A program made the position numbers and the translations under genes. From the IMG/VR virus record IMGVR_UViG_2510065010_000001, positions 1-64,000 of that record: a DNA stretch of 64,000 bases; one strand, 5' to 3'. Under the pieces are notes generated by a model. The model did no database searches and was not told the origin of the DNA. It saw only the letters and a program-made list of their open reading frames with translations. Source of the stretch: a virus (Duplodnaviria; Caudoviricetes). Positions 1 to 59,458 of this stretch are shown here, piece after piece. The number at the start of each line of letters is the position of its first letter. Position 1 is the stretch's first letter.

Positions 1-594
1 CTAACGCATACAATCGGTACAGTTCTCATCTCGTTTTCTGGTGTGGTAAGAGGTGGCTAAATAAGCTGTTGGAGTGACACCCTTATCAGCTTTTTGCATT
101 GCTCGGAAAACCCTGGCGGGGTCAACTAAGCTTTGATTAAATCTTAACTCAAAATGTAAGTGAGGACCGCTGGAGTTACCCGTTGATCCTGCTAACCCCA
201 AAGTGTCTCCAGCTTTTACTTCTTGTCCTTTCTGAACTGAAACTGCACTGAGGTGACAGTAACGATGATCCCACCGTCCTGACACCACGTAAACTTCTAA
301 GCCGCACCCACCCTGGTCTGTAGTAACAACGTCTTCAACTTTACCTTTCCACCAGTTGATTACGGGTTTACCAGTATCCACAGCTATGTCTATAGCACTG
401 TGGAATCCACCAGCTCTGTTTCCGAAAGGAGACGTGTACCCGACAAAATCCTGAAGTTTGATGGGAAACCGAGCATAACTCCAGTCTGTTTTACTAATAG
501 CAGCCTGGACTTGCAAAGTATCCCAGTTCAAAAAAAGTATAAGAGAAAGCGTCAGTAAAAAACTGGTTATAAATTTAAGCAGCCTGTTTTGCAT
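1..594 (-). CDS. M23 family metallopeptidase (peptidoglycan endopeptidase), secreted
   Basis: Signal peptide; HSAID, YCHLS and GNSSGPHLHFE M23 motifs. Confidence 0.9.
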   Translation of the reverse strand: MQNRLLKFITSFLLTLSLILFLNWDTLQVQAAISKTDWSYARFPIKLQDFVGYTSPFGNRAGGFHSAIDIAVDTGKPVINWWKGKVEDVVTTDQGGCGLEVYVVSGRWDHRYCHLSAVSVQKGQEVKAGDTLGLAGSTGNSSGPHLHFELRFNQSLVDPARVFRAMQKADKGVTPTAYLATSYHTRKRDENCTDCMR

Positions 595-1087
595 GAACGG
601 TGTGTGTATTCTGGTTACGAATTGCAGCCCACAGCCAGCTGCGTTCTATTTCACTTAATTGATCCTCAACTCGTGTATTTAACCACGAGTAAACAAAATC
701 GTATCCGTAGTCCTGGCACATAGGAGCTAAAACTTGTCTTAGACGGTCCGCATTCTGTGCACGACACGTTAATAAAACTAGTCCCATACTAGTTTCCAAT
801 GCGTTTGTACTTAAGAAAAACTCTTGAGTACGTGTCAGATAAAGAAATGGCAGCGACTCAACTGCTTTCTTGGAAGTTTGTTTAATCGTTCCAACAACTT
901 GATATTGTATTGCAGCAACTACTGAAACAACCAGTACTAAGGGTACTAAAACATTTCCGGCTAAGTAACCCAAAGCTCCGCCTGCGATAATCATGCAGGC
1001 TACAAATGCACCCAGTAAGTATATTAAAATCCACTGAGACGATACCCACTCGATAAGTGTGTTTGTATAAAGCTTTTGAGTAAACAT
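575..1087 (-). CDS. Membrane protein with 2 TM helices, hypothetical
   Basis: Two N-terminal hydrophobic segments; overlaps the M23 gene, so likely operonic. Confidence 0.7.
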   Translation of the reverse strand: MFTQKLYTNTLIEWVSSQWILIYLLGAFVACMIIAGGALGYLAGNVLVPLVLVVSVVAAIQYQVVGTIKQTSKKAVESLPFLYLTRTQEFFLSTNALETSMGLVLLTCRAQNADRLRQVLAPMCQDYGYDFVYSWLNTRVEDQLSEIERSWLWAAIRNQNTHTVHAKQAA

Positions 1088-1089
1088 TT

Positions 1090-2136
1090 TCAGGAACGCT
1101 TAAAACTTTTATATCCTTCTAGATAAACGTTATCATCCATTGAGGGTGTTGCGCCAGCTGCGGCGTCCAATCTGCCTTGCGTCCAAAGAACAGCTTTAAT
1201 TTTTTGCTCAGTTAAAGGCAGTCTGGTGACTGAGCGTAATTGAGCTTCGAAACGGTATGGGTTTTGGTCTAAAGCAGGACGATACGATACAGGTTGAAAT
1301 GATGTTGGGCGCACTCCAGCCAACCATTTATCCAACGCTTGTGTCATCATGGTCATTCGTCTCTTTTGATCGGTACGTAACCAATATTCAGATACAAACG
1401 TCGTATCGTAGCTTCCCGTATCAGGATTAATAAATGCTTTTGTTCTTGCCTCTAAGATAGCTTCGTCACCCTTTAACCCCTTAGATTTCGCTTCTTTTAG
1501 CCGATCAAAGTAGTTGCCTCGACTATAGCCAAAGCTACCTCCGTTTCCGTCTCCACTACAACCAGATGAACAATAACCAATGCAAAGGGGAGCTTGGTTG
1601 ACCACATCAATTGCGTTATAAACTTCGGCGTCTGAAAGATTATCCGAAGCTATCTTCGGTTTAATAAGTTGATGATAGAAAGCTTTTAGTTTACCGTATT
1701 GTCTTTTGTCTGCTTCATGAGGACTTAGATTATCAGCATTTCCAAATTGATATGAAAAGGCACCCCTGTTATGCACCCCATTACCGGGGTCGGTGTGTCC
1801 GTCATAATTAGGAGTTGTGTTTCCATTAATATCGACACACCCCTCGGCAGCACCCACTAAGCGCCAAACTAATGATTTTTGCACAGGTTCATCCACCCAC
1901 AAGTCTGCTTCAGTAAATCTAAATCCTTGTGGATTATTTTTTTGTTCTGGGTGTTTCTGGACTTTCTCTTTTTTCTGATTGTTCTGACTAGGAATTGGAA
2001 CAATAGAGTTTAAGGTACTAGTTTTATTAAACTGGTCTGACATTGTATGTAAAACTATTACACCAATTGCGCCACCAGCTAACCCTTCTAGAAACTTACG
2101 CCGTTTAACTGTGGTTGAATAACTGCTGTAAATCAT
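1090..2136 (-). CDS. Secreted or anchored lysozyme-like putative cell-wall hydrolase (cyanobacterial GHxDPGNG family)
   Basis: KRRKFL plus TM N-terminus; GAAEG...YDGHTDPGNG..NRGAFSYQ motif; function inferred. Confidence 0.55.
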   Translation of the reverse strand: MIYSSYSTTVKRRKFLEGLAGGAIGVIVLHTMSDQFNKTSTLNSIVPIPSQNNQKKEKVQKHPEQKNNPQGFRFTEADLWVDEPVQKSLVWRLVGAAEGCVDINGNTTPNYDGHTDPGNGVHNRGAFSYQFGNADNLSPHEADKRQYGKLKAFYHQLIKPKIASDNLSDAEVYNAIDVVNQAPLCIGYCSSGCSGDGNGGSFGYSRGNYFDRLKEAKSKGLKGDEAILEARTKAFINPDTGSYDTTFVSEYWLRTDQKRRMTMMTQALDKWLAGVRPTSFQPVSYRPALDQNPYRFEAQLRSVTRLPLTEQKIKAVLWTQGRLDAAAGATPSMDDNVYLEGYKSFKRS

Positions 2137-2154
2137 CTTTTGACTACGTAGAAC

Positions 2155-2952
2155 TTACTTAATTTTTTTAAGCTCAGCTTCCACTTGAGCAACTGGAATA
2201 GCAATAGCCTTTCCGACACCTCCTGAAGCAGAGTTCATGCCCACAACCATTCCAGTTTCATTCAACAGAGGACCGCCTGAATTTCCTGGATTTATTAGGC
2301 TGTTGTGGGCGATCACGTTAGTTAACTGGGATACAGCTCTCCCTTTGTACCTAATAGAAGGTATTACATCTACGATTTTACCCACAGAAATGTTGATGCC
2401 TAGTCCAAAAGGATTACCGATACTTACTATTAATTGATCTCTTTGAAAACCCGATAACCCCAACGTTTTGCAAGGACAATCATGTTTAACGAACGCAATA
2501 TCATTGTCTTCAGACTGATGTATAACAGTTCCTTTGCAACGCTTGTTATTTCCAAAGTTAGTTAGCTCAACAGTAGAGTTACCCATAACCACATGCTTGT
2601 TAGTAACCACCAGGTCTTGGCTGATTGACCAACCACTACCTATCTCTCCATTAGCATTTATTGCAAATACTCCTTCTAACGATTTATTCACCACTTGAGA
2701 AATAACTTTAGTTTTATCTCCTGAGATAGTCACTGCTGCCTGGTTTAATCCAGGTATGTTTGGTGCATCCACTTTTGGAGGATCTACTAAAGTGTTGGAG
2801 CCTGGAACAACTTGTGCAAACTTATCCTTAATACTTTGTAAGAATGCAAGGTCTAAAAGTACTGATGTGTCTCCATGAAGATACAATACCGTGCCAGCAG
2901 TTATTGCTGAGCATATTAATAAAGTGTTGCGTCTAGATTTGATACTCATCAT
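2155..2952 (-). CDS. Trypsin-like S1C serine protease without PDZ domain
   Basis: GSGW, VTNKHVV, DIA and NPGNSGGPL triad motifs; N-terminal anchor. Confidence 0.9.
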   Translation of the reverse strand: MMSIKSRRNTLLICSAITAGTVLYLHGDTSVLLDLAFLQSIKDKFAQVVPGSNTLVDPPKVDAPNIPGLNQAAVTISGDKTKVISQVVNKSLEGVFAINANGEIGSGWSISQDLVVTNKHVVMGNSTVELTNFGNNKRCKGTVIHQSEDNDIAFVKHDCPCKTLGLSGFQRDQLIVSIGNPFGLGINISVGKIVDVIPSIRYKGRAVSQLTNVIAHNSLINPGNSGGPLLNETGMVVGMNSASGGVGKAIAIPVAQVEAELKKIK

Positions 2953-4928
2953 GTTTTATTTGCCATGTTTCGGACAATCTGCTCCACCGCTTGTTGTTGA
3001 GCTGGGACAGGATTATTAGGTTTTTGTGTAGCTTGTGGAACAACTTGCTGAACAGGCTGTTTATTGGTTTGTGTTGTTTTATTAGTTGCTTGCGGCTTTT
3101 TTGGAAGTTGGGGTAACTGAGGGACAGGTTCTTTTAACTGGTCAGTAACCGCTGGTTTAACCTTGGAATATAAAGTCTTTAACTCTTCTACCGTTCTTTG
3201 TAACAGATTTTCACTTAGAAAACCTATCTGTGCTCGAACTGGTGGTCTTCCGAAGTAATAAACCCAGCTGTCACCTTTACCAACAAGTTGTGAGCCAATC
3301 TTACCATCTGAATTCTTCTCATCAAAGATATACATGGATGCGTGTGGGGTAGAATGCAACACAACTCTAGTTGGACACATATCCCGAACATCTGTAGTAA
3401 TAGATTCTTCAGTGGGGGTATGTGCTCCGATCGCCCATAAAATTCCGTTAGAACTAGTTGTTCTAGTTCCTTCTTCTAAGAGGTCATCTATTTCTTTTGA
3501 GAATTGCTTTGTTTGTCGGTATTTTAGAGTGTCAATCTCTTCAAGAACAACAAACCAGATCGGCATGGGTGGTAGCCCTTTTTCAATCCTACGTTTGTTG
3601 TACGACCAAATGTTGTCTACACCTTCTGCCGAAAAGATTTTATCTCTGCGGGAGTACTCCTTAGCAATCAGATGCAAAACTTGATAGGCGCGTTCAACAG
3701 TAGTAATTACTTCACCGTTCCATAAGTGCGGTAACCCCTGAAAGGGGGAGAAGCTTTTTAGTCTTAAGTCGATTGCGATAACCGAAACCCACTGTGGTTC
3801 GTACTTAAGGCACACCTGCAGGAGAATTTGTCTAGCAAGGTTAGACTTACCAGATCTTGTAATACCTGCGTAGAGTATTGGTTGCTCAAACGATACGTAG
3901 ATTCGTGTGTTCTGAAGGTCCACCCCAATCGGAAATTTAGGAGGCTGGGATGGGTCTGCCATCACAACTCTTCGTTGCTGATCGAAATTTAATAAGGAAG
4001 TAAATGGGCAATGCTCCCAATACTCTTCGGGTTTTGGTACTTGAACCTCAAATACTCCCCTTAACCCAGCAATAATTGTAGGCTTGGGAATACCGAGGTA
4101 CTGCATTCCCATTTGCACTGCTTCCCCGGACATTGCACGAAACCGGGTGAAATCTTGCAGCTTACATCTAAAAATAAAACGGATTACTCGTAAGTGTATA
4201 ACTACTACGGGGTTGCCCAACTCATCTAATGCGGGTTGAACCGTAGGAAAGTTTAATGAGTTAAATACCAACTGCATCGAATAAGACAATTGGCGTAATA
4301 AGTTTATATCGTTGCAATGTTGGTCTAAATCAATCTGGATAATTTCTTTTTCGGGTAACACAATATCGCTTGGTGGTCTATGCGCCAAAGCTCCAGGAGA
4401 ATTTGTAGAAATTTGCTTATTGCTTTCTTGATTTGAACTTAGAGAAGTTGTAGGAGCAGGAGCAGACATCGGTGGTTGCTGCAAAGCAGTAGTATTTTGC
4501 TGAGTCGTAGCCCTTGTGTTTTGGTCACTGGAGCTTGTCGAATTAGTTACAAAATTTTGAATTTTAGAGTTGGCAACTTTTTTACCAACTCTCTCAACAA
4601 TATGTTTAGGTAGTTGAAATAAATGAATCCAGTTTTCTATATCCTTCATCGCTCGTTCACGTTCTGACTCCGAATTCGCTCTGTAAGCAGATTCATATAG
4701 AACCTGTAAACCTTCTGCGATGAAGGCGTCAGCTGAGCAGTTAGAAGTTAATATTCGACTCCCAAATTCTCGTAGAGTTGCAACCTTGTTAGGACTGCTT
4801 TGCACAGCAATACGCATCTCGCGGAGCAACTGAGATTCACTTTCGACGGTTTGTAGATTAGGTAAGGACTCAGGCTGTGGCACAGCCTGAGTCCTTCTGA
4901 GTAGAGAATTAAGCACGTCCACCAGCAA
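2949..4928 (-). CDS. FtsK/SpoIIIE-family ATPase
   Basis: PIGVD, Walker A AGITRSGKS, IDLR, R..IF...GV.NI..YN, Walker B VVLEE, PTRV and L.GKGD motifs; no TM or gamma domain seen. Confidence 0.88.
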   Translation of the reverse strand: MLVDVLNSLLRRTQAVPQPESLPNLQTVESESQLLREMRIAVQSSPNKVATLREFGSRILTSNCSADAFIAEGLQVLYESAYRANSESERERAMKDIENWIHLFQLPKHIVERVGKKVANSKIQNFVTNSTSSSDQNTRATTQQNTTALQQPPMSAPAPTTSLSSNQESNKQISTNSPGALAHRPPSDIVLPEKEIIQIDLDQHCNDINLLRQLSYSMQLVFNSLNFPTVQPALDELGNPVVVIHLRVIRFIFRCKLQDFTRFRAMSGEAVQMGMQYLGIPKPTIIAGLRGVFEVQVPKPEEYWEHCPFTSLLNFDQQRRVVMADPSQPPKFPIGVDLQNTRIYVSFEQPILYAGITRSGKSNLARQILLQVCLKYEPQWVSVIAIDLRLKSFSPFQGLPHLWNGEVITTVERAYQVLHLIAKEYSRRDKIFSAEGVDNIWSYNKRRIEKGLPPMPIWFVVLEEIDTLKYRQTKQFSKEIDDLLEEGTRTTSSNGILWAIGAHTPTEESITTDVRDMCPTRVVLHSTPHASMYIFDEKNSDGKIGSQLVGKGDSWVYYFGRPPVRAQIGFLSENLLQRTVEELKTLYSKVKPAVTDQLKEPVPQLPQLPKKPQATNKTTQTNKQPVQQVVPQATQKPNNPVPAQQQAVEQIVRNMANKT

Positions 4929-4929
4929 A

Positions 4930-5586
4930 TTAAAAGTGCAAAATAACTCCTAACCCATAAGCTATTAAACTGTACAGGAAGGGTTTTCTTAATCGTTTCA
5001 ACCAATTAACATTTTCAGCATAGAAAAGGATGAATCCACCGATTATGGCTACTGCGATCCATAGGTGTAAGTTTAACAATAGAGCGTTTAGTTCGAGTGA
5101 AAACTTGCTTACTTTTCGTAGTATTGCAATTACTAAGTAGTAGAACCCGATGTGCAGATGATGCTGATTTTCACTAAAAGTAGTTTGAGGTTTCTTTTTA
5201 GATAGCTTCGGTTTGGTTTCTTCTTCTTTTGCTTCGTTTTTTCGAAACCTACCTAAAAAGTTTGGAAACGCCCCTTTAGATTGCTCCTCTTCAGAAGCAT
5301 TTACATCAGTTTCTTGTTTTGGTTGTTCAGGTTTTGGAGTTGGCGTAAACGTAGAGTTGACTGGAGACTGAATTGGAGGTCTGCGTGGGATAGTCCCACG
5401 AGAAGGTGTTGCACCAGAAGCTTCTGTTCTATTAGGAATTGGAGCACTCTGCGGTGAACGAGGAGACTCGTATTCAATAGTTACAGCCTCCGTTGAAATC
5501 GTCTCAAACCCATTGTCTACAAATCCTCGCAGGAACTCCTCACTACGTTCCAGTCTATTTTTATTATTATCAGCTTTGCTTTGCAT
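4930..5586 (-). CDS. Membrane protein with Pro-rich N-terminus and C-terminal TM helices
   Basis: Hydrophobic C-terminal segments; 1 nt from the FtsK start. Confidence 0.7.
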   Translation of the reverse strand: MQSKADNNKNRLERSEEFLRGFVDNGFETISTEAVTIEYESPRSPQSAPIPNRTEASGATPSRGTIPRRPPIQSPVNSTFTPTPKPEQPKQETDVNASEEEQSKGAFPNFLGRFRKNEAKEEETKPKLSKKKPQTTFSENQHHLHIGFYYLVIAILRKVSKFSLELNALLLNLHLWIAVAIIGGFILFYAENVNWLKRLRKPFLYSLIAYGLGVILHF

Positions 5587-5600
5587 ATACGATTTAAGGA

Positions 5601-6389
5601 TTACTGCAAACTAGGAGGTTCATCTGGTGGAGTACCTGTTCCTTCTTTCGACTTAGGTTGCTCTTTCTTTTCTGCAGGCACTTCTTTCTTTTCTAAAGCA
5701 GCGGGGGGAGTCGGAGGTTTTTTAATTTTAGGAGAAGTCAGAATAGCTAATAACAACCCTCCTACCAAAAGTGCAACAGCTATGCCATACAGTCTTGGGT
5801 GGCGTAACAGAAGATAATCAATGAACCCTGTCACTCTTGCATAAAGGTTTTTATTTTGAGTGGCAGCACCAGGAGGAGCAACTAAGTTAGAAAGTTCACT
5901 AACTACAGTGTGAGCTTGTGCCGTTACGTCTTGATAATGTCGTTCTACATTTGTTGGTAGTTCATACGGTGGTGATTGGTAAACAGGTTGAGAGGACGTA
6001 CTGACTGGAGCATCATAGAGGGGAAAAGATGCTGGGTGAGGCTGAGCATAATTTTGATACTCATGTTGATGATGTGGTTGTTGTTGGTAAACAGGTTCCT
6101 GTTGGTAAACAGGTTGTTGGAACTCAGACCGGGCAGGTGGTAGTGCAGCAGTAGGTTGAGCACCTGCTAACATTCTTCCAGCATTGAGATAGGTGGCTTG
6201 CTGGTAGACCTCCGCAAGTGTTGCAAGTTGCTGAACGTGCTCTTTATAACGATGCTGAGAAGAATTTGATAGCTCTTTCATCTCTTGTCGTCTGGAAAGC
6301 AGCACGTCAATTTCTACTACGTCGCCCTTAAATTCGATGGTCTGACCATCATACTTCAGCTCCATCATTACCTCCCCAGGCATCCTCAT
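5601..6389 (-). CDS. Q/P-rich single-TM membrane protein
   Basis: QQPVYQ repeats; TM segment near the C-terminus. Confidence 0.7.
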   Translation of the reverse strand: MRMPGEVMMELKYDGQTIEFKGDVVEIDVLLSRRQEMKELSNSSQHRYKEHVQQLATLAEVYQQATYLNAGRMLAGAQPTAALPPARSEFQQPVYQQEPVYQQQPHHQHEYQNYAQPHPASFPLYDAPVSTSSQPVYQSPPYELPTNVERHYQDVTAQAHTVVSELSNLVAPPGAATQNKNLYARVTGFIDYLLLRHPRLYGIAVALLVGGLLLAILTSPKIKKPPTPPAALEKKEVPAEKKEQPKSKEGTGTPPDEPPSLQ

Positions 6390-7023
6390 CCTCTATAAAT
6401 CGCGCCGGAGTTAACGGCTGGTCCTCAGTGATTTTCTGATTACCGTTATTAATAGCGGGTGCCAATCTCTCGTGCGTCTCAGCAAAGTTAGGTTTATCAA
6501 CAGATGTCGCTGCTGTATTAATAGTCTGAGCTGAAGGTAAAGCTTGAGTCGGACGCTCTGACATTTTCTGTAATATGCTTTGAGTTTCTTCAGACAATCC
6601 TACTTCCAGCCGCAAATTGTTTGGGAACTGGTTTGTAACGTAGTTAGCTGGTTGACTGGACTGTAGAAGTACCTCGTCTTCGTCCTCACCTTTGCTTTTT
6701 ATTACTATCAACGAACTAAGCCAACCAATTGTAGCCCCGCCTGCGCACAGTAGCATCCAAGTAAACGGCGTCGTCGGTTTATTATCAGGTCGAATACAAA
6801 GTGCAGCTAGAAGTCCAAGACTACCAGCAGCGATAATCCTAAATCCGGCTTGGATGGTGATTGGTTTTTTCATAGCGGTTGGCGGCAGTGTTTGTAAGGT
6901 TTGAAAACTATGCACACTTACTACTGCTTTTGTTTCCGGGTAGCAGGGCAGTGGGTTGTGTGTAGGGACTAAGTTTATTGGATGCCTTTGGTAATTCAGG
7001 TAAGGCACTTCGAAAGTTGGCAT
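6349..7023 (-). CDS. Membrane protein with 2 TM helices (true start probably MKKP near 6873)
   Basis: Two hydrophobic segments; operonic position. Confidence 0.65.
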   Translation of the reverse strand: MPTFEVPYLNYQRHPINLVPTHNPLPCYPETKAVVSVHSFQTLQTLPPTAMKKPITIQAGFRIIAAGSLGLLAALCIRPDNKPTTPFTWMLLCAGGATIGWLSSLIVIKSKGEDEDEVLLQSSQPANYVTNQFPNNLRLEVGLSEETQSILQKMSERPTQALPSAQTINTAATSVDKPNFAETHERLAPAINNGNQKITEDQPLTPARFIEDEDAWGGNDGAEV

Positions 7024-7579
7024 CCCAGATGGAATTTAGCACCTCCTCTTTAGTTAAAGCTTGATTTTCAAACCGAGTAGGTGGGTGCTCTTTATTTAGG
7101 ATTATGTACTTCTGGAGAGCTTCGCTTGGGATTAAAGACGCTCGGTGATGTAGGTGGAGAGCAACTTGATCTGTAAACTTGTCTATTACCTCTGACTGAG
7201 TTTGGATCAACTCGTTTGCTTGCTCGATGTATCCCCCTATTGTTTGCCCTATGGCATTACTTAATAGAGCAAGACCGGAATTTGGTCCAGAAGAATCTTC
7301 AAAAACATTAGGGTCAGCTTTTTCCGAATTTGCTTTCCCTAACCCTTGGATATAATCTAAGGTTTCTCTGATGGTGCTAAACGCTTCTGTATTTTTCACA
7401 GATATCACATTACGAATAGTATCAATGTCTGCCTGCTTAAAATTACTTTTGTTGCCTACAATCAACAGGATGTCTTCTTCACTTACTCCTGTTATTTCAG
7501 CAACTTGACTAACAGCGTACATCTGCGGTCCTCTCATATTTCTCTCAATTGGTAAAGTAGCTGCGGCTTCATTCAGCAT
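6908..7579 (-). CDS. Putative HTH DNA-binding protein (MerR/excisionase-like N-terminus)
   Basis: YAVSQVAEITGVSEEDI HTH-like motif followed by a helical region; first gene of the operon. Confidence 0.55.
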   Translation of the reverse strand: MLNEAAATLPIERNMRGPQMYAVSQVAEITGVSEEDILLIVGNKSNFKQADIDTIRNVISVKNTEAFSTIRETLDYIQGLGKANSEKADPNVFEDSSGPNSGLALLSNAIGQTIGGYIEQANELIQTQSEVIDKFTDQVALHLHHRASLIPSEALQKYIILNKEHPPTRFENQALTKEEVLNSIWDANFRSALPELPKASNKLSPYTQPTALLPGNKSSSKCA

Positions 7580-8030: not shown

Positions 8031-8069
8031 AAATAAGAAAGGGCACTTAGTAAGTGCCCTTTCTTATTT
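8031..8069. terminator. Bidirectional terminator-like palindrome
   Basis: 19-bp perfect arms with a 1-nt spacer between convergent genes. Confidence 0.8.
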
Positions 8070-8080
8070 GTTAGAAAAAT

Positions 8081-8506
8081 CTAAGTCAAATCTGCCTCAT
8101 CTATACATTTGTCATCTTCGTCGTACCACTCAATCCATTCGTACTCTTGCTTATCTTCGTTGAACTCGTAAAGTTCTAATCCACCAGCATTTGCTGCAAT
8201 AAATTCATCTCCTAACGCAAGGTCATACATCGCCAAAATATTAAGGATTATTTTCGCTTGCTGAGGACTCTCTACATAAAAGTGAAAACCTTTAGCAGGG
8301 GGATTGGGTATCCGCCACACTCTTAATTTTCCTATAAGTACTTTTTCAGACTCTTCTTCTTCTCCAAACCCATCATAAATCGTAGAGACTAAATAATCAT
8401 CATACATAGTTAGGAGAACTTCACCCATTATTTTCTCTTCATTAGAGTTTATAGGGTGTGAAAAAAGAATTTCAGGTTTTAGTTTTGATTTGTGGACAAT
8501 TTTCAT
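8081..8506 (-). CDS. Phage-type hypothetical protein
   Basis: LRVWRIP...NAGGLE...W.EWYD motif typical of small phage proteins. Confidence 0.65.
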   Translation of the reverse strand: MKIVHKSKLKPEILFSHPINSNEEKIMGEVLLTMYDDYLVSTIYDGFGEEEESEKVLIGKLRVWRIPNPPAKGFHFYVESPQQAKIILNILAMYDLALGDEFIAANAGGLELYEFNEDKQEYEWIEWYDEDDKCIDEADLT

Positions 8507-10530: not shown

Positions 10531-11313
10531 CTATTCTGACAGGTCCGAAGCTGGTTTGTCTTGTTCAGTGGGTACTAAAGGCATTTGTTGAGCCAGCATT
10601 TTTTCTTGATGTTTCTTCGAAATACCTGAAACAAGATACTGCACCTCTTTTTTCTTGTCTTTGGGGACAACAGTTAACGTGTAGTCCCCAGCTGGGAGGC
10701 TAACCTCTTTAATCTCAGAGAACGTCATAATTCCCTCAGACATCTTGGATTTGTGCGAATGTTTGCCATCAGCACTAACTAATTTAAGGTCCGGCATCAA
10801 GTCCGGGTCAGCAGTGATCGCGGCAAAACTATAAACATCCTCTTGCCCAACGTGGAACTTGTACGTTTGTGGACTATTAGATAGGATTGCCCGGTAGTTA
10901 AAGAAGTTTTTTACTTCGCCAACTTTGAAATCGTGGTTCTCGAATTGTTCGGAAACCTCTAAGGTGTACTTAGCTGTGTCAGACCCTTCACCTAAATCCA
11001 CTTCAACGTAATAAGTACCTGGTTTTAGTAAGGTGACGCCCTCTGGAGATGATGCATAGGCGAACTCTTGATAATTAAGGTATTCGCTGGCAACCCCGTC
11101 GTTTTTACTAGCTACTTGGTCAATTCCAAAAAGTGTGATTGCTTGGTGGTCAGAGTTTTTTAGTACGAGGTCGGCATTACCTGTTAGGTTTGTTAGGGAG
11201 ATTGCGAGGTTGCCTGTGCTTGGAAGCTTAACAGAATATTCAAGCGAGGAGTGGTTTTTGGTGAGTTCTGCTTGAATAGGTTGATTAAAGGTGATAGTTG
11301 GTGTGGTTAGCAT
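10531..11313 (-). CDS. Tandem PPC (pre-peptidase C-terminal)-like domain protein
   Basis: LTNLTGNADL...S.N.G..SE...L.PGTYYVEV, present twice. Confidence 0.75.
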   Translation of the reverse strand: MLTTPTITFNQPIQAELTKNHSSLEYSVKLPSTGNLAISLTNLTGNADLVLKNSDHQAITLFGIDQVASKNDGVASEYLNYQEFAYASSPEGVTLLKPGTYYVEVDLGEGSDTAKYTLEVSEQFENHDFKVGEVKNFFNYRAILSNSPQTYKFHVGQEDVYSFAAITADPDLMPDLKLVSADGKHSHKSKMSEGIMTFSEIKEVSLPAGDYTLTVVPKDKKKEVQYLVSGISKKHQEKMLAQQMPLVPTEQDKPASDLSE

Positions 11314-11324
11314 GAGTTTTAGTT

Positions 11325-12047
11325 TTAGTCAGGAATACCTGGAAAAGATGCTGGTGTTTCAACCTCCGTTGAGTAATTTTCAACGTCTTTTGAAGTAAGA
11401 TGCTGAATTTTTTCTACGGAGTGAACAGCAAACACATAACTTGCATTAGCCTTTGCTGTTACTTTTACAGTATACTTTCCACTCGAAAGATGTCCTCTCC
11501 GAGTTGCTGCTATTGGCATCATCGCATCTACTGTAGTTTCTAGTACTTCATCATCTTTACTGAAAACAACATCCAGCGAATTTTTACTAGGTGAAGCAAC
11601 ACTAAGTAGATAATCTCCTTCTTCTGCAATGAAGAATTCATAAGTGTGACTCTCATCTGCAGTTAACTCACTAGGATAGATCACACTAGACTTAACTTCG
11701 CCAACATCTAGAGAGGTTATTTCGTGTGCTGAAACTAAAAGCTCATACGTAGCACTTTCTCCTTGTAGCAAAACTTCGACCGTATAATCGCCAGGGTCTA
11801 ACGTCTTTAGCCTTTCAGCAGTGTGGTTCAATGCAGAGAACGAAATATATTCCGTATTTGTTCCGACATTATTGCTGGTTGCAAGAATTGCGTCATCTTT
11901 TTTAAGAACTAGGGAGGCATCCCCATTAATGTTTTTTAGATGCGCAACGATGTTTGATGGGTTTTCAAGATGAATAGAATAAACTGCTTGCCTGTTTGTG
12001 AAAGACAGGTTACCAATTGAAGGTTGGTCTAGTTGGATGGGAATCAT
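11325..12047 (-). CDS. Tandem PPC-like domain protein
   Basis: LKNINGDASL...SNNVGTNTE...LDPGDYTVEV; paralog of neighbouring genes. Confidence 0.75.
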   Translation of the reverse strand: MIPIQLDQPSIGNLSFTNRQAVYSIHLENPSNIVAHLKNINGDASLVLKKDDAILATSNNVGTNTEYISFSALNHTAERLKTLDPGDYTVEVLLQGESATYELLVSAHEITSLDVGEVKSSVIYPSELTADESHTYEFFIAEEGDYLLSVASPSKNSLDVVFSKDDEVLETTVDAMMPIAATRRGHLSSGKYTVKVTAKANASYVFAVHSVEKIQHLTSKDVENYSTEVETPASFPGIPD

Positions 12048-12077
12048 TTCAAGTATTTCCTTTACTAATGGACAGAG

Positions 12078-12098
12078 GGGGGTGAGTCGCTCACCCCC
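12078..12098. terminator. Stem-loop
   Basis: GGGGGTGAG-tcg-CTCACCCCC just after the 1581-aa gene. Confidence 0.5.
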
Positions 12099-12108
12099 TT
12101 CTTCAGAA

Positions 12109-15100
12109 CTAGCTTAATGCATTCAGGGTGTCAGTCCTAGTCGTTTTGTCAAAGACTGTGTAATAGGCTCTATCTCTCATTTCCAATGAGATAGGAATTT
12201 GGTCTGACGTTAAGGAAGTGACCTGTCGAATAGACTTACCATCAGTGGCCCAGACTTGCCACCCAGTGGATGCTTTCTTTCCGATAAAGTAAACACGGAA
12301 ATTAGTTTCCACCATGTTTCCAAAATCTTCGAAATCGGTGCTTAATCTTTCAACAGTGTAATTTGAGACATCAGCTTCATTCGAATGCTTATCTTCTATC
12401 GCATAAAGTTGGAAACCTAAGTCGTCTCCGGCATCAGCTAAGAAAGTAATCCGACCATTCCCAACCGAGTGGAATCCGTGAGCACCTGAACCAACGGGCT
12501 TTCCATCTTTTATCCCAGGATTGATGTTGGACGGATGAGAAGTTGTAATAGGAACAGGGCATACAGGACCACCATCTCTGGCACGTAGATAGTACTCATA
12601 AGCAGTACCAAAGAAGGTTGCCGGGTTGATCACTCCAAACAAACTACCGTAAGTTACAGGATTGTCTGATCCATTAGTAGACTTACCATTGTCTGAATCA
12701 CTGGGGTATTTAGGAGAACCACCATATCCTTTTTCCGTATTCAGACCAAAATGCATACCAAAGGGTTCCCACCCAATTGCATACTGCTCGTTGTAGTTGG
12801 GACAGTCTCTATTTGCCTTACCCGTTGCTCGTGCTTCAAAAGCGTAGCCTGCACCAAAGACAGAGTTCTCGTAAACTACAAAGTCGTTAAAGAACGGAAA
12901 GATAACTTGTCCAGGTTTTACCATGAACCGTGCATCTCTAGGATGATTGTTAAATGCATTTGCATAACCAATTCCTCCACCTCCTTGATAAAGCATATAA
13001 GGAACACCATTTACAAAAAGGAGAGGTACAGGTCCAACTTCTTCATATCCTCTATAACCAATTTGGTACTCCTTAATTACTGCACTAGACAAGGAGAGAA
13101 CTTCACTTTGTATTGGACCGCCACCAGAACCAGAACTACCTGTACTAGATGCATAGTCAACATATGCAGATGTGTTCTTAATGTAATAGTCGTTTAACTT
13201 CTGTTCAGTCGTGTACCCACTAGTAGTTGGGAGCCTAAGGTCATTAGTTAAGGTCGGACCAAACACTTTAGTTCCAACTGCAGCAAAAATTCCTGGTTGG
13301 GTGCCTGCCTGCGAGTTAAAGTCCGCCATTGATAAGATACTAGTAATCGGAGTGGAAATATCCGTATTGTATTTGGTAACAAAACCAGGACTACCGGGCG
13401 TTGTACTAGCGTTGACTCTCCAAATACCATTTCCGTCGTTTGTTCCTGTCCCAGATTTGTAAGCACTGAAGTAGGTATAGCCATCGGTATGAACTACGAG
13501 GTTATCGATATTAGAAGATCCTTCCCCTGGTTCAATATCTGTCATCCGTTTGAGCACAGGTGGGTTGACAGTTGTATCTAACCGATCAAGTTCATAGCCA
13601 TATCCTGGGGTGTATCCGACGCCATAGATCATATTTCCCGAAACTACTAATCCGTGCAGGTCATATACTGGGTCTGACGTTTCAGCAACAGTCAACTCAG
13701 AAGTGTCACTAGATGTGTCTGCTGTACTAACCCAAAGGTTTGTTCCTTTTTCAGAAGGACCAATGAAGTATTTGTTAGAGCCAACCACCACAAAATCTGA
13801 AAATCCTACTCCATTTGAAGCAAGATTTAGATCCTTTAATAACGAAGCGGTGTTTGTTGTTGTCGTAAAAGTGTAAGGTTCATTACCGTAGGCTACAGTA
13901 TTCGCAGCCATCAGCAACAACGTAGAACTATGCGCAAATAGTGAGGATGGATTGCTACCGAAGTTGAATCCACCAGACGAAGCCCGTATTTCTGTTTTAG
14001 TTGGAGCAGAATTCGTACTAATTGTGTGTCTGAAAAGCTCGATGTTTTCCGCACTGGAAGCGTCACTTGCTGCCCAAAATACTTGGTCTGAACCTAACTT
14101 TGTAAATCCATAGGGGTCTGATGAACCAGAACTGTTTACTTGAGTTGTCCCCACAAGTCCTGGAGTCGTACTGGTATTTTGAATTCGAAACGCTTCATAA
14201 TCGTCTGAGCCAGAATTATCTGCGCTAAAGTACAACCAACTAGTATCGACTGCCGTCAAGTTAGTTGGGTTACTATCATCAGACCCGGAACGAATATCGA
14301 TCAAGGTTGGTGAAGTCTTGTTGGCGTTAGTTATCTTCCAAAGTTCTCTGCCTTGCGATGAGCTACCTGTTGCAGCAAAGAATAGTGCAGGAGTGGTTCC
14401 GTTTTTTACAACAGTCAGTTCAGAAGGGTTGCTACTGTCACTACCTGAAAGAATATCGATAGGAGTAGGTGCAGTCCAATTATTAGCGGAACTAACGTGG
14501 AATAACTCTGTTCCAATATTCGAAGCTTTTGTTTGAGTGGCAATAACATAGAGGTCGTCATCATCTAGAGCTACAATTTCTGTTGGGTTAGAGCTGTCAT
14601 ATACAAAGCCAGTCAAAGGGTCATACGTACTTCCAGGTTCGATCGCTGATCGCCTGGATACTGAGAAAGCTTCTGGAATAATTCCGTAGGTGTTTACTAG
14701 AAACCCAAACTCTACTGCAAAAAGGTCTTTCCCACCTATAGAAAGGTCTCCAATAAAATACACAAGAAACAGGTCATTGTTGTTTGACTGATACGTAAAA
14801 TCTGTAGGGAAAGACAACAGTTCATCAGATGCAACTACTCTAATATTAGGTCCATCCGAAGCTGTAGAACCATCAGTAGCCCAAATACGAATCTTACCTG
14901 ACTTGTACGCACCAAAGTACAGTAAGTTGTCGCCTGACGGACCAAGTGCAGTTAACGATGTTGGGTTACTACTACCATCAAGGTTAAGGTCAAACCTTTG
15001 CACATTTCCTGTAGTATTAACCCTATAGAGTTCTGTATCTCCATTTACATCTGTGGCTTTGAAATAGACCCAGCTGCCGTAACTATTGGAAAGGTTTGTT

Positions 15101-16854: not shown

Positions 16855-16923
16855 TTTAGTAAATTTGTGATGGACATTATCATAATGTCATGGCTTAGCT
16901 AAGAGAGTAGGAGCATATTGTAA

Positions 16924-17544
16924 ATGTTGATCCCAAACACATCAGTACAAGGTTATGTAAGTTATGAAACTACGGCTAACGAATATTTTTTTGATTTAGA
17001 AAGTGCTCAATCCGTTCAGCTTTGGTTGACCAAACAAGTTTCACCGTCTGCAAACTTTGAACTCTACGATGCAGACACCGGACGGATGCTAGAGTTTTGC
17101 ATGAACTTTGGTAATCTAAGTGGGTTAATGGAAGCTCAGCTTGAAGCTGGACATTATAAAGTAAAGGTGTTTGCTCCAGAAGAAGGACAAGCGACGAGTT
17201 ATGAGCTTTTACTTCGAGTTTCAGACCCGATTCACGGAGTTGACATTAGTAATAGTGAAGAAGATGCCTTTCCCATTTTTGAGGGTGGTGCACGAGGATT
17301 TGTAGATGCTTATTACAACACTAAGTTTGAATATATCAATGACGTAGACGTTTACAAAATGGAATTTGATGCTCCTACTAATTTGTTTATAAGTGTTCTA
17401 GGACACTTTATAAATTTTGGTATATACAGGAAGGGTGATGATGAACCTATAGACATACGAGAAGGCTTCGATGTCGGAACGTATTACGTGAAAATTAAGG
17501 GTTATAGCGGCGACTATAAGCTTTATGTGCACCCTAACTATTAA
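16924..17544 (+). CDS. PPC-like domain protein
   Basis: ANFELYD...LEAGHYKVKV and DVGTYYVKI. Confidence 0.7.
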   Translation: MLIPNTSVQGYVSYETTANEYFFDLESAQSVQLWLTKQVSPSANFELYDADTGRMLEFCMNFGNLSGLMEAQLEAGHYKVKVFAPEEGQATSYELLLRVSDPIHGVDISNSEEDAFPIFEGGARGFVDAYYNTKFEYINDVDVYKMEFDAPTNLFISVLGHFINFGIYRKGDDEPIDIREGFDVGTYYVKIKGYSGDYKLYVHPNY

Positions 17545-38169: not shown

Positions 38170-39045
38170 ATGTTTCTTGAAATTAATAACTTTATGAAAA
38201 AGCAACTCTTTGCTGCACTTACAGCAGTTGCTACTGTCGCAATTGGGGCAGTAGAGGCTAAAGCCGATGTCATTTGGGGTCAGGCTAACAGCCCAGTTCC
38301 TTACGAAAATGCTGAACCGTTTATTGGTACACAACTAGACGGGCTAACTGAAACACAGTTGAATGTACCTTGGTCTGTTGGTTGTCCTTCTGAGTCTTCT
38401 TCGAGTGTTGCGAGAGTTTATGGTTTTGCAGATTTTAACCAAGATGGCAATAAGGACGTTCTCTATCACCTATCTGACGGCGATGTTTACATTGCTTTAG
38501 GTACCGGTGCTTGGAACACCTACTCTTCTTGTGTACTTTTGCAAAACGTACCTCTTGATTGGTATGCTGTCCCCGCTAAATTAGTGGGTGATGGACATGT
38601 AGACATTGCTTGGCATAACAAATCTAGTGGTGCTTTTGGACTTTGGGAGATGAACGGTACGGCTGTTGCTGGATATGCTGGAGTTTCGGGTGCAGATACT
38701 ATTCCTCCTGAATGGATTCTATCCGCATCATCAGACTTTAACGCTGACGGAAAGGATGATCTTGTTTGGCGGAACACCACATCAGGACAGAACGCTATTT
38801 GGGTGTTAGACAACGGAACCATCGTTGATGTGAAGTTTCTGACAGATGTACCTTCTGGTTGGTATATTCGTGGGGCAGGAGATTACAACGGTGATGGTAA
38901 GCCTGATTTATTGTGGTGGTCACCTTCTGCAGCTCCAGATGGACTAACTGCAGTTTGGGTACTAAATGAGTATCTGCAGATTACTGCTGCTCCTTTGCTA
39001 ACATCCCCTGGTGCTAACTACATTCCTTTAGGTGGTTGGGATTAA
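38170..39045 (+). CDS. Secreted FG-GAP/VCBS repeat protein
   Basis: Signal peptide; DFNADGKDDLVWRN-type repeats. Confidence 0.88.
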   Translation: MFLEINNFMKKQLFAALTAVATVAIGAVEAKADVIWGQANSPVPYENAEPFIGTQLDGLTETQLNVPWSVGCPSESSSSVARVYGFADFNQDGNKDVLYHLSDGDVYIALGTGAWNTYSSCVLLQNVPLDWYAVPAKLVGDGHVDIAWHNKSSGAFGLWEMNGTAVAGYAGVSGADTIPPEWILSASSDFNADGKDDLVWRNTTSGQNAIWVLDNGTIVDVKFLTDVPSGWYIRGAGDYNGDGKPDLLWWSPSAAPDGLTAVWVLNEYLQITAAPLLTSPGANYIPLGGWD

Positions 39046-57589: not shown

Positions 57590-59458
57590 ATGGTAGCAGT
57601 TGTTCAGTTAAAACACCCACTCTTTGCAGATAAACCTGAAAAAGTATCAAGGGCGATCGCTTCACTAAATGCCTGTAGTGGTTCATCTGATACTCTTAGA
57701 ATTCTTCAAAAACCCACTCAAACCTGCGCCAGCCAAGCATTCCAACTCTTACGTTCTTCTGACCACTCTTCCCACTCTTCCCACTCTTCCCACTCTTCCC
57801 ACTCTTCCCACTCTTCCCACTCTTACAACGCATTCCAACTCTTACGTTCTTCTGACCACTCTTCCCACTCTTACAACGCATTCCAACTTTTACGTTCTTT
57901 AGACCACTCATTCCACTTAAGTTATTCCAACGATCCTAACTGCTCTAGCTATACATCCCAACTCTTACATTTTTCTAACCACTCAAATCACTCAGCCTGT
58001 TCTAGCTGTTCTAACCGATTTAGTTGTTCTAGCCACTCATTTCAGCTTTTACATGTTTCTAAAGCTTCAAGCTGGTCTACTTGTGTAAGAGATTCTAATG
58101 GGTTTAATCCATCTTACGTTTCTAACCCTAGTCAGGTTAGTTCTAGTGGCTCTGATGATCTTTCGTTTGTATCAAGTAGGAGTGGTCAGAGAGTATCTAG
58201 GTGGTTAGGCAAGTTATTAGGGTATTTATCAGACAGCGATGCCGGGGCGAGTGGGAATAGAGATCAGTTTAATAGTTCTAATAAGGTTATTGGTAGCAGT
58301 TGCGAGTCAGCTGGGCGGCAGTTAGTTGGCAAACGTTTGTCTTTGGTTGATAACAGCATTGGGTTAGGTGTTATCAGTAGCAAGACTGGGGCGGCTGGCA
58401 GTTACGCCTCTAATAAGGTATCGTCTAGTTCACGTAGAGAGCGTTCTGTTCGTGGGTTATCCCGCAGTGGTTCAAAAACTATCCGGCGTGGGATTTTAGA
58501 GTTAGCCTCACGAAGTCAGTCAGCTGGTGGGTTAATGGAGTTTATTACTTTGACAGTACCTACCAGGCGAGCTGGTGGGGATTTGTCATCTATGGATTTC
58601 AGCGCACTCAACAATAACTTTGCCTCTATAGCCACAGAGATACGTAAGGGGTTAGAGAATGTTAATAAATCTGCAGGTAAGGCTGGTGTGCCGACCGTTT
58701 CAGTCACGTCAGAAGTTTTTCTGGTTAAGGAATTACAGGTTAGCCGTTCTCTTTTTAATCATGTTCCCGTACCACATTTGCACATTGTTTGTAGGGTTGC
58801 TGGGAGTGCTGACAGTGGTGGGATGAATAAACACGAGCGCGACGTGTGGCGTGAGATTATCACTAACTTGTGGAAGAAAGCCTTATTAAAGCGATTTACT
58901 AATAAATGGAATTATTACAACTGGGCGGCGTGTTCGTCTTCTCAGCCTGTTCGTAACGTAAAAGCCACAGCACGGTATCTTGCTAAATGGGAGAGTAAAG
59001 GTAGCAATGATATTGAGAACTTGAAGGATTCGGGTATTGACGTTACTTCTCTAGCTGGGCGTTGGTATTACTGCTCTAACCGTCTTCGGAAGGTGCTAGA
59101 AGACCAGACAGTCGTTTTAACGGATCAGCAACAGGAGCGTTTACAGGAGTGGGTTCAAACTAGAGATCGTAGGTATATCCGCCACGCTCATTTTGTGAAA
59201 CCACATCAGCATTGTGGGTCTATTGGAGCTTCTGTCCAGTTGACAGATGAAGGTATTGCTGAATTGTTGTTGGAGTCGGAAGAAGTTAAGCAAGCGTCTG
59301 TTTTACCATCTACGAACTTTATTTACAAGATTGCTCTTTTCTTGTGTCTTTTTTGCCCGATGTCTGCTTTCGCTTGTTGTGTCGTCACACTGCACTACTT
59401 TGACTATTTCTTATTAAGTGCCGAACGTGGTCCTCCTCCTCCTCCTGCGAAAACCTAA
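57590..59458 (+). CDS. HUH rolling-circle replication initiator with a long low-complexity N-terminus
   Basis: Motif I FITLTVP, ELQ..R, motif II PHLHIV, motif III YLAKWESK. Confidence 0.8.
   Translation: MVAVVQLKHPLFADKPEKVSRAIASLNACSGSSDTLRILQKPTQTCASQAFQLLRSSDHSSHSSHSSHSSHSSHSSHSYNAFQLLRSSDHSSHSYNAFQLLRSLDHSFHLSYSNDPNCSSYTSQLLHFSNHSNHSACSSCSNRFSCSSHSFQLLHVSKASSWSTCVRDSNGFNPSYVSNPSQVSSSGSDDLSFVSSRSGQRVSRWLGKLLGYLSDSDAGASGNRDQFNSSNKVIGSSCESAGRQLVGKRLSLVDNSIGLGVISSKTGAAGSYASNKVSSSSRRERSVRGLSRSGSKTIRRGILELASRSQSAGGLMEFITLTVPTRRAGGDLSSMDFSALNNNFASIATEIRKGLENVNKSAGKAGVPTVSVTSEVFLVKELQVSRSLFNHVPVPHLHIVCRVAGSADSGGMNKHERDVWREIITNLWKKALLKRFTNKWNYYNWAACSSSQPVRNVKATARYLAKWESKGSNDIENLKDSGIDVTSLAGRWYYCSNRLRKVLEDQTVVLTDQQQERLQEWVQTRDRRYIRHAHFVKPHQHCGSIGASVQLTDEGIAELLLESEEVKQASVLPSTNFIYKIALFLCLFCPMSAFACCVVTLHYFDYFLLSAERGPPPPPAKT
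57737..57915 (+). repeat. Nested repeats: CCACTCTTC x6-7 within a ~48-bp unit x3
   Basis: Read directly from the sequence; encodes SHS and AFQLLRSSDH. Confidence 0.9.

Follow-up and report, generated by a model that had tools for sequence, protein, structure and literature searches.

A cassette of FtsK-type motor, membrane-protein and exported wall-enzyme genes in an integrated cyanobacterial tailed prophage: a possible envelope-associated DNA translocation module

Introduction

The 64,000-nt stretch of DNA considered here (the window) comprises positions 1 to 64,000 of the IMG/VR virus record IMGVR_UViG_2510065010_000001 and corresponds to G000:C1:618804-682803 of a single-contig 5.53-Mb genome. 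Nine open reading frames (ORFs) on the minus strand fill its positions 1-7579, and a tenth gene coupled to them runs across the window start; together they form a cassette in which the gene for an FtsK-type ATPase stands among genes for membrane proteins, a serine protease, a lysozyme-fold protein and an M23 metallo-endopeptidase. The original prediction, made from the sequence without database searches, had proposed a candidate transfer or spreading system, independent of a type IV secretion system (T4SS), in a cyanobacterial element, by analogy with Streptomyces plasmids and actinomycete integrative and conjugative elements (AICEs). The sequence evidence described below instead places the cassette within an integrated tailed prophage of 206.8 kb, and we consider it an accessory module of this phage, probably with a function in DNA movement.

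A tightly coupled cassette

Nine tightly coupled genes had been predicted in the order helix-turn-helix (HTH) protein, protein with two transmembrane segments, protein with one, further transmembrane protein, FtsK/SpoIIIE ATPase, trypsin-type protease, lysozyme-like protein, second two-segment membrane protein and M23 peptidase, and the ORF calls, Pfam searches and transmembrane scan bear out both order and place. From gene 3 on, neighbouring genes overlap by 4-20 nt or are separated by gaps of 1-18 nt. The longest ORFs overlap by 116 nt at genes 1/2 and by 41 nt at genes 2/3, and for this reason the real starts of the first three genes are probably later than those of the longest ORFs. Only three of the nine proteins (ATPase, protease and M23 protein) have Pfam matches, the other six having none. 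Transmembrane segments were called by a Kyte-Doolittle scan, with extra hydrophobic stretches in genes 4 and 8 noted by eye.

Gene 5 (2949..4928, minus strand, as are all cassette genes) encodes the ATPase and is followed by gene 6 (2155..2952) for a trypsin/HtrA-like serine protease of 265 aa (Trypsin_2, E 1.8e-20), which has an N-terminal hydrophobic anchor or signal and in which the His, Asp and Ser motifs can be read directly. Gene 7 (1090..2136) encodes a 348-aa, apparently exported protein of the lysozyme superfamily with a twin-arginine-like N-terminus (KRRKFLEGL). Gene 9 (1..594) encodes an M23 metallo-endopeptidase of 197 aa (PF01551, Peptidase_M23, E 8.7e-24) with a signal-like N-terminus and both HxxxD and HxH motifs; because its stop codon is positions 1-3 of the window, the gene is complete. 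Between the last two lies gene 8 (575..1087) for a small polytopic membrane protein of 170 aa, with at least one transmembrane segment in the scan.

Upstream of the ATPase gene, gene 4 (4930..5586), which ends 2 nt before it, encodes a protein with a proline-rich N-terminal part and C-terminal hydrophobic segments, at least one of them transmembrane. The gene 3 product (5601..6389) is predicted to be bitopic, with a soluble N-terminal part, a long stretch rich in proline, glutamine and tyrosine, one transmembrane segment (residues 200-218) and a lysine/proline-rich tail, and that of gene 2 (6349..7023, true start likely later) is a membrane protein with two predicted transmembrane segments. 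Gene 1 (6908..7579) has a longest ORF of 223 aa and a database form of 204 aa, its start probably being near 7522. The HTH assignment made for it earlier stands only in part: the structure neighbours of its product in the Atlas are MerR-like, at low TM-scores of 0.27-0.37, weakly suggesting a possible MerR-like HTH regulator, whereas the protein has no Pfam or PHROG match and is an orphan among 5.8 billion proteins. At the other end, the tenth gene occupies positions 1..29 of the window and extends to 411 nt before the window start; its 146-aa product has an N-terminal hydrophobic segment and a conserved Cys pair.

The ATPase is an FtsK-type motor by sequence and model

The 659-aa ATPase matches PF01580 (FtsK_SpoIIIE) with 62.5 bits against a cut-off of 24, and phrog_1358 at E 9e-31. 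Its AlphaFold2 model (pLDDT 73.3) shows a helical N-terminal domain (residues ~31-125) joined by a disordered linker (126-193) to the motor (~200-590), after which the tail is disordered. The earlier reading of this protein as an FtsK without transmembrane or gamma domain holds: the Kyte-Doolittle scan found no transmembrane segment, and thus no N-terminal transmembrane domain, and the gamma-domain profile PF09397 gave no match at E<=0.1, residues 596-659 being modelled at low confidence and disordered. The Walker A motif, GITRSGKS, is invariant. The Walker B motif is VVLEE, as predicted, and both glutamates (E463 and E464) are invariant in the five closest family members, but the homologue in a second genome, G450, has the canonical DE; the EE is therefore a trait of a subclade, not of the whole family of cassette ATPases.

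With the single sequence as query, a search of the PDB gave EccC of T. curvata first (E 7.5e-17) and FtsK next. With a profile of eight family members the FtsK motor 2iuu came top (E 2.9e-41, 145 bits), the profile spanning chain residues 24-464, that is, the alpha and beta domains; EccC reached 129 bits summed over three domains, TcpA of pCW3 80 bits and EssC/YukB 75. The comparison by structure pointed the same way. In a Foldseek search with the ATPase model, ranks 1-10 were all FtsK motors (E 3e-23 to 6e-21, TM-scores by target 0.73-0.81 over 416-432 aligned columns), TcpA (1e-15) and EccC (1.6e-15) first appearing at ranks 18 and 21. The protein carries one ATPase domain, against two or three in tandem, together with an N-terminal membrane part, in EssC/EccC. 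By sequence and model, then, the ATPase is an FtsK alpha+beta motor predicted to lack the transmembrane and gamma domains, and among known motors it appears closest to the true dsDNA translocases.

A putative lysozyme-fold protein alongside an M23 peptidase

The gene 7 product has no Pfam match, and its lysozyme-like character, part of the original prediction, has moderate support from structure. The AlphaFold2 core (residues 74-277) has pLDDT mostly >90. In a structure search other than Foldseek, the model matched MltE with Z 7.8 (root-mean-square deviation 3.8, 136 aligned), MltC with Z 7.5, MltF with 7.4 and the P22 and T4 lysozymes with 6.1-6.5, values below 8 being rated middling by the tool; its top matches, Z 7.8-5.0, were lytic transglycosylases, chitosanases, phage lysozymes and T4-lysozyme fusion proteins. 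The best Foldseek match was P1 Lyz, at E 0.1. Across 30 sequences Glu98 is nearly invariant, and cyanobacterial relatives are fused to M23, SLH or YkuD domains, which fits a wall-directed role. Judged largely from the model, we assign gene 7 to the lysozyme superfamily with moderate confidence. The gene had no match in 50,697 phage records.

A pairing with M23 is seen elsewhere. Plasmid1 of Leptolyngbya boryana NIES-2135 (L056, AP018204, 134929-155405) has a long operon of small transmembrane genes, which pairs an M23 protein (457 aa) with a lysozyme-fold homologue (224 aa); no FtsK-like gene lies within 10 kb of this pair. The two genes may thus be a recurrent unit on cyanobacterial plasmids.

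The carrier is an integrated tailed prophage

The genome holding the window has eight photosystem reaction-centre matches, so the carrier replicon is a cyanobacterial chromosome and not a plasmid. Within it lies an insertion at G000:C1:607175-814001 (206.8 kb), which begins 11,629 nt ahead of the window and ends ~131 kb past it. Both flanks are adjacent in contig C56 of a same-genus genome, G004, which thereby provides the empty site, and a 14-bp direct repeat stands at G000 607161-607174 and 813988-814001; the repeat was located via the right junction given by this empty site, an earlier blastn-short search with the left junction having given nothing. The DNA left of the insertion is common to four same-genus genomes, in which the insertion itself is absent. 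Its G+C content is 41.6%, against 47.7% in the rest of the chromosome, and the 7-mer pair TTAATAA/TTATTAA is 15.4 times denser throughout it (330 copies, 289 of them not fully intergenic), the four densest 50-kb bins of the genome being exactly those from 600 to 800 kb. Base composition and 7-mer density argue that the insertion is one foreign element. The host chromosome, for its part, seems to avoid this 7-mer pair.

A plasmid- or AICE-like nature of the element does not survive the check for virion genes that the original prediction had called for; a full virion module is present. It includes a Mu-type portal (PF06074, E 1.1e-11), a Mu-like prohead protease, major capsid protein E (PF03864, E 2.2e-15), a tail sheath (PF17482, E 3.7e-14), minor tail proteins and a large terminase (phrog_17415, E 2.9e-21). 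Compared with its counterparts in Ma-LMM01-type Microcystis myophages, the terminase shows 35.9% identity over 91% of its length (E 2e-92); identity to that of Microcoleus phage My-WqHQDG is 36.4%. Further prophage genes encode a UvsX-like recombinase and a helicase. At the left end, the first gene inside is a 379-aa ORF with a weak match to Phage_integrase (tyrosine recombinase; E 1e-3, below cut-off), while a tail-fibre/collar gene ends ~150 nt from the right repeat. The family scans (Pfam or PHROGs) covered 84 of the 216 element ORFs of at least 60 aa. From these sequence features we identify the element as a 206.8-kb integrated, Ma-LMM01-related tailed prophage with full virion module and exact ends. 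Because the cassette sits inside a tailed prophage in a chromosome, at 11.6-19.2 kb from the integrase end, we regard it as an accessory module of a phage, not as part of a plasmid.

As a carrier the prophage resembles the Ma-LMM01-type cyanomyophages in its terminase, contractile-tail gene set, large genome and many transposase genes. Unlike them it is integrated, has an integrase-like gene and 14-bp repeats, and measures ~207 kb against 162-182 kb; moreover, no Microcystis phage is found among ten of the twelve genera holding an ATPase relative. The size of the element exceeds the 200-kb 'jumbo' line, yet it holds several TnpB/IS605-type genes. It also encodes a cluster of PPC-domain and FG-GAP-repeat proteins, some as long as 1581 and 827 aa (window 10531-17544, 21146-23629 and 38170-39045), and giant ORFs of 3311, 5284 and 1523 aa (G000 708725-718660, 755464-771318 and 775613-780184).

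The cassette recurs at low identity in another element

A syntenic counterpart, all genes running in one direction, is present on contig C275 (16,057 nt; locus L050) of genome G450. There, two proline-rich proteins with C-proximal transmembrane segments precede the ATPase, protease, lysozyme-fold protein, a homologue of the tenth gene product, a small polytopic protein and the M23 protein, so that eight cassette positions are found in like local arrangement, six of them at 26-43% identity. These six are the ATPase (26% over 506 aa, E 2e-38), the protease (29%, E 1.6e-15), the lysozyme-fold homologue (34%, E 1.9e-28), the tenth-gene homologue, which here lies inside the cassette (35%, E 6e-15), the small transmembrane protein, whose likeness to gene 8 is weak (30% over 60 aa, E 4e-4), and the M23 protein (43%, E 5e-36). 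The catalytic motifs of the protease, M23 and lysozyme-fold proteins are retained, as is Walker A. The upstream pair is alike in architecture to genes 3 and 4 with no sequence similarity, and no counterpart of gene 2 was seen in this locus, the contig beginning just upstream of the cassette.

The same G450 contig carries a cI-like HTH gene and a large serine recombinase, and a search of G450 (genome 85% complete) with the G000 large terminase as query found no terminase of that type. Lysozyme-fold homologues of 50% and 56% identity are on contigs of 137349 and 581901 nt, and ATPase relatives P0002 and P0022 are recorded on contigs of the same sizes, their co-location being judged from equal size only. 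We conclude from these sequence comparisons that the cassette is conserved and appears to be carried by differing mobile elements.

Looser parallels are a Calothrix plasmid, one operon of which combines small transmembrane genes with an M23 gene and a gene for an FtsK-like protein of 722 aa, and the Cylindrospermopsis phage Cr-LKS4, where an FtsK-like gene comes after a Cro/C1 gene and small transmembrane genes. A full-text literature search turned up no description of the cassette among the papers listed, which is no proof of absence.

A rare ATPase family apart from housekeeping FtsK

Among 5.8 billion clustered proteins only one relative exceeds 30% identity to the ATPase (P0002, 43%). HMMER over 1.84 billion representatives gave five, including the window's own, at E <1e-100, three further ones near 1e-40 (P0026, P0027 and P0029) and 14,432 at <1e-3; the clusters of the top representatives comprise one or two members each. 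Across 301 sampled genomes of the class, a strong match is confined to G000, with 11 others scoring 1e-26 to 1e-30, and among 90 genomes of the order matches at E<=1e-35 occur in two, G000 and G450. The ATPase was not found in any of the four same-genus genomes. Searches of public genome contigs and viral contigs yielded no close relative, and metagenome contigs gave two distant loci. Relatives are held by 211 phage records, and the transmembrane-less FtsK-like proteins of phages are only 23-27% identical to the ATPase.

A quick maximum-likelihood tree was built from 83 motor domains, out of 164 whose match to the family hidden Markov model (HMM) covered 150 positions or more; of the unnamed representatives above P0060 every fourth was kept, and support values are from SH-aLRT only. 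The cassette ATPases group in a seven-member clade (SH-aLRT 99), apart from the 37-row clade that contains E. coli FtsK and nearer to other cyanobacterial mobile-element proteins and giant multi-domain proteins, deep support being weak. The tree thus does not bear out a grouping with housekeeping FtsK, and a housekeeping identity is ruled out by the separate clade together with the absence from all four same-genus genomes; the gene, in addition, lies inside the insertion. The family HMM did not detect pIJ101 Tra or pCW3 TcpB at E 1e-3, hence neither is in the tree.

Elsewhere in G000, PF01580 has one further match only, in a 1795-aa chromosomal ORF (4008997-4014384, plus strand) with a C-terminal FtsK-like domain, and in the control genome Synechococcus elongatus the same search gave no match. 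Some giant proteins (P0024, P0028, P0030-P0036), 2300-3650 aa long and containing 5-8 FtsK-like stretches, score closer to the cassette family than ordinary FtsK does. A conserved three-gene set, with products of ~270-370 aa, 700-750 aa and a transmembrane-less FtsK-like protein of 660-870 aa, recurs in other cyanobacterial genomes (L021, L022, L023, L025 and L027) and is unrelated to the cassette.

Transfer genes and the surroundings of the cassette

The window had been read as free of relaxase and VirB4 genes, and all scans agree. In a six-frame search of the complete genome, PF03135 (VirB4), the relaxase family PF03432 and the coupling-protein family PF02534 gave no matches, other relaxase families being unsearched, and PF12846 (AAA_10) gave one sub-threshold match at 4.01 Mb. 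Nor did any of the 84 scanned element ORFs match a T4SS or relaxase family. A full T4SS or relaxase set elsewhere in the genome, using this ATPase as its coupling protein, is thus not borne out, and neither, given the synteny in contig C275, is a lack of conservation of the operon.

No clt-like repeat cluster was noticed around the ATPase gene between 3,000 nt before the window start and position 9000, where no dedicated search was made; that repeat scan gave three-copy 10-mers only, with one cluster (5976-6112) within the coding repeat rich in proline and glutamine. The HUH Rep of the original prediction is a lead only. The candidate, a rolling-circle Rep-like protein of 622 aa (57590..59458, plus strand), is in the same prophage, outside the cassette and 50 kb from the operon. 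The motif HLHIVC stands at residue 396 and is followed further on by a Tyr motif, and its Atlas features place it with the REP_ORF2-G2P, Rep_1 and RepSA clusters at 0.93, 27 of 30 hits being to the REP_ORF2-G2P set; it has no Pfam, PHROG or PDB sequence match, and the 161 language-model features that it shares with Rep clusters are below the 170 typical of true members. Its model-structure neighbours are also rolling-circle Rep families. The protein may be a replication initiator of the prophage or part of a nested element.

Past the tenth gene there is a 110-nt gap and then a DUF4230 gene, a ThyX-like gene, a ParA gene and more minus-strand genes. The ThyX-like protein (L001 17184-18755, minus strand, 1,245-2,816 nt before the window start) has 523 aa, about twice the usual length, and matches phrog_36506 end to end at E 2e-60. 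On the other side, a hairpin of 18 pairs with T runs (8031..8069), found by a consensus scan only, lies between convergent genes and, from its sequence, is the predicted upstream limit of the operon's transcription unit. A promoter scan found no more sites than in shuffles. Beyond the hairpin is a gene (8081..8506, minus strand) for a 141-aa protein with the GP17 superinfection-exclusion domain (PF17420, E 2.7e-9; score 37.5 bits, cut-off 25). This strong hairpin and a divergent 143-aa gene separate the GP17-domain gene from the operon.

Discussion

A close known parallel in arrangement is the TraB/Spd system of Streptomyces plasmids (pIJ101, pSVH1) and AICEs, in which an FtsK-superfamily motor is encoded in an operon with diverse small, poorly conserved membrane and wall proteins, stops and starts overlap, peptidoglycan is bound, and neither T4SS nor relaxase is needed (PMC4447253). 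Unlike the cassette ATPase, TraB brings a membrane part of its own and binds clt through a C-terminal domain; here, moreover, the carrier is a tailed prophage with virion genes, and dedicated exported hydrolases and a protease are present. Because pIJ101 Tra, one TraB-type reference, is undetected at E<=1e-3, no homology to Streptomyces TraB is shown other than shared membership in the FtsK superfamily, and we keep the TraB comparison as an analogy. Motors without an N-terminal membrane domain also occur among phages, in Cluster J mycobacteriophages (PMC3706429), Bacillus Herelleviridae and Cr-LKS4; the Cluster J proteins, unlike the cassette ATPase, keep a gamma-like domain. None of the phage records examined shows the set of protease, lysozyme-fold protein and M23 protein.

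Two further plasmids are instructive. The minimal FtsK-type conjugation system TraD/TraC/TraG of pELF2 from Enterococcus faecium has a transmembrane-less FtsK/VirD4-type ATPase, encoded in a 12-gene operon and proposed to be anchored by a membrane partner (PMC13492992). It differs in having a second ATPase as VirB4 analogue, whereas one ATPase is seen in the cassette, and in its envelope; the two are likened by description, not homology. In the Gram-positive T4SS of pCW3, the FtsK-like coupling protein and ATPase TcpA is encoded beside membrane proteins and a peptidoglycan hydrolase (TcpF and TcpG belonging to the same system), but with a VirB4-like TcpF and the relaxase TcpM, and neither VirB4 nor a PF03432 relaxase was found in G000; TcpA also scored well below FtsK. 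The examples of TraB/Spd and pELF2 show that motors of this type can transfer DNA from cell to cell with the help of few partners and, as proposed for pELF2, can be anchored in trans, and these systems are the precedents for what follows.

Let us assume that the products of the cassette, whose first nine of ten genes make up the stretch near the integrase end of this Ma-LMM01-type prophage, act together. Then the proline-rich membrane proteins encoded upstream might bring a soluble hexameric FtsK alpha+beta motor to the inner membrane, and a lysozyme-fold enzyme, an M23 peptidase and an HtrA-like protease, exported by the Tat or Sec route, could locally open or process the peptidoglycan and periplasmic parts. 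Pumping of the element's DNA across the septum or cell envelope would then serve cell-to-cell spread or forced segregation. Starting from the gene content, folds, prophage context and synteny that we observe directly, and from the lack of recognisable T4SS parts, we infer the assembly into one machine, the DNA substrate, and the direction and purpose of transport. We favour this scenario because the motor is of the FtsK type, because it is evolutionarily linked to membrane proteins and three exported enzymes, because the carriers vary, and because two other roles of the motor fall away: packaging is ruled out since the prophage encodes its own terminase, and T4SS coupling is excluded by the missing VirB4, PF02534 coupling protein and PF03432 relaxase in the complete genome. 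That the cassette is a phage accessory module with some DNA-moving function is, in our view, probable; that it is specifically a module for T4SS-independent dsDNA translocation at the envelope, with mobile elements as its carriers, is a tentative proposal, which we hold with somewhat less than even confidence. Transfer or intra-filament spread in cyanobacteria, as originally predicted, is possible by analogy. A stronger form, in which a temperate cyanophage of ~207 kb would possess a portable, FtsK-driven, conjugation-like machine for virion-free passage of dsDNA through the septal or outer wall, we consider rather improbable.

Several observations pull away from dsDNA translocation. With no gamma or winged-helix domain and no clt-like repeats, there is no sign of how the DNA would be recognised, and the family HMM misses pIJ101 Tra. 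The element can already be transferred in virions, so that there is less need for another route. Serine proteases are not usual in FtsK-based conjugation. Finally, the cassette is integrase-proximal and beside a GP17-type exclusion gene, and defence or moron genes are common in integrase-proximal regions of prophages.

The last point leads to phage defence or superinfection exclusion, that is, an envelope system that would pump or block incoming phage or plasmid DNA, or cause abortive wall damage. The position of the cassette 11.6-19.2 kb from the integrase end and next to the superinfection-exclusion domain gene, its movement between unrelated mobile elements, and its rare and patchy occurrence in the order are what such a device might show; the Sec- or Tat-type signals on the hydrolases, though, look constitutive rather than triggered, and we know of no described defence system of this composition. 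We think defence unlikely, and much the same, or a shade less sceptical, is our view of a helper of the lytic cycle, in which the hydrolases and small transmembrane proteins would act in lysis or wall remodelling while the motor clears, segregates or concentrates phage or host DNA inside the cell, a role also supposed for other FtsK-like phage proteins lacking transmembrane segments. The phrog_1358 match, the relatives in 211 phage records, and the ParA and DNA-metabolism genes downstream of the cassette speak for it, as do the transmembrane-less FtsK-like proteins of Cluster J mycobacteriophages, whose role is reported to be unclear (PMC3706429). The linkage of motor and hydrolases, kept at 26-43% identity in another element, argues instead for one function. 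In addition, signal-bearing enzymes are unusual in holin-endolysin lysis.

The first place of T. curvata EccC in the single-sequence PDB search raised the question of type VII-like protein secretion, with the ATPase as EssC/EccC, the protease as MycP and the hydrolases as EssH. The gene set does combine a protease with membrane proteins, and the type VIIb system is reported to recruit a dedicated wall hydrolase (PMC13059805). FtsK nevertheless outscores EccC and EssC both by family profile and by model, the ATPase has a single ATPase domain, not three, with the FtsK alpha domain present, and no WXG100-like small gene was noted in the cassette, for which no profile search was made; we regard protein secretion as improbable. 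Still less credible to us is a chance neighbourhood of separate morons without common function. Three of the ten proteins are without detectable relatives by the tools used, as might be expected of such a neighbourhood, but tight coupling, synteny at low identity in a second genome and co-occurrence on two further contigs (by equal size) all stand against it.

Of the readings considered, envelope-associated dsDNA translocation is therefore the one we carry forward, tentatively. Transmembrane-less FtsK-like genes are scattered in phages, and here one sits with likely membrane and wall partners, which turns it into a testable machine. The carrier is notable in itself as an integrated relative of the Ma-LMM01 type, ~207 kb long and with exact ends, and should the cassette prove to be a defence or lysis device instead, its gene combination would still be undescribed. 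If the stronger form of the proposal were true, a phage would have a second, plasmid-like route of spread, and cyanobacteria would have their first DNA transfer system independent of a T4SS. Should the cassette move DNA across the envelope, TraB-like dsDNA transfer would extend beyond the Actinobacteria, and the line between phages and conjugative elements would be blurred.

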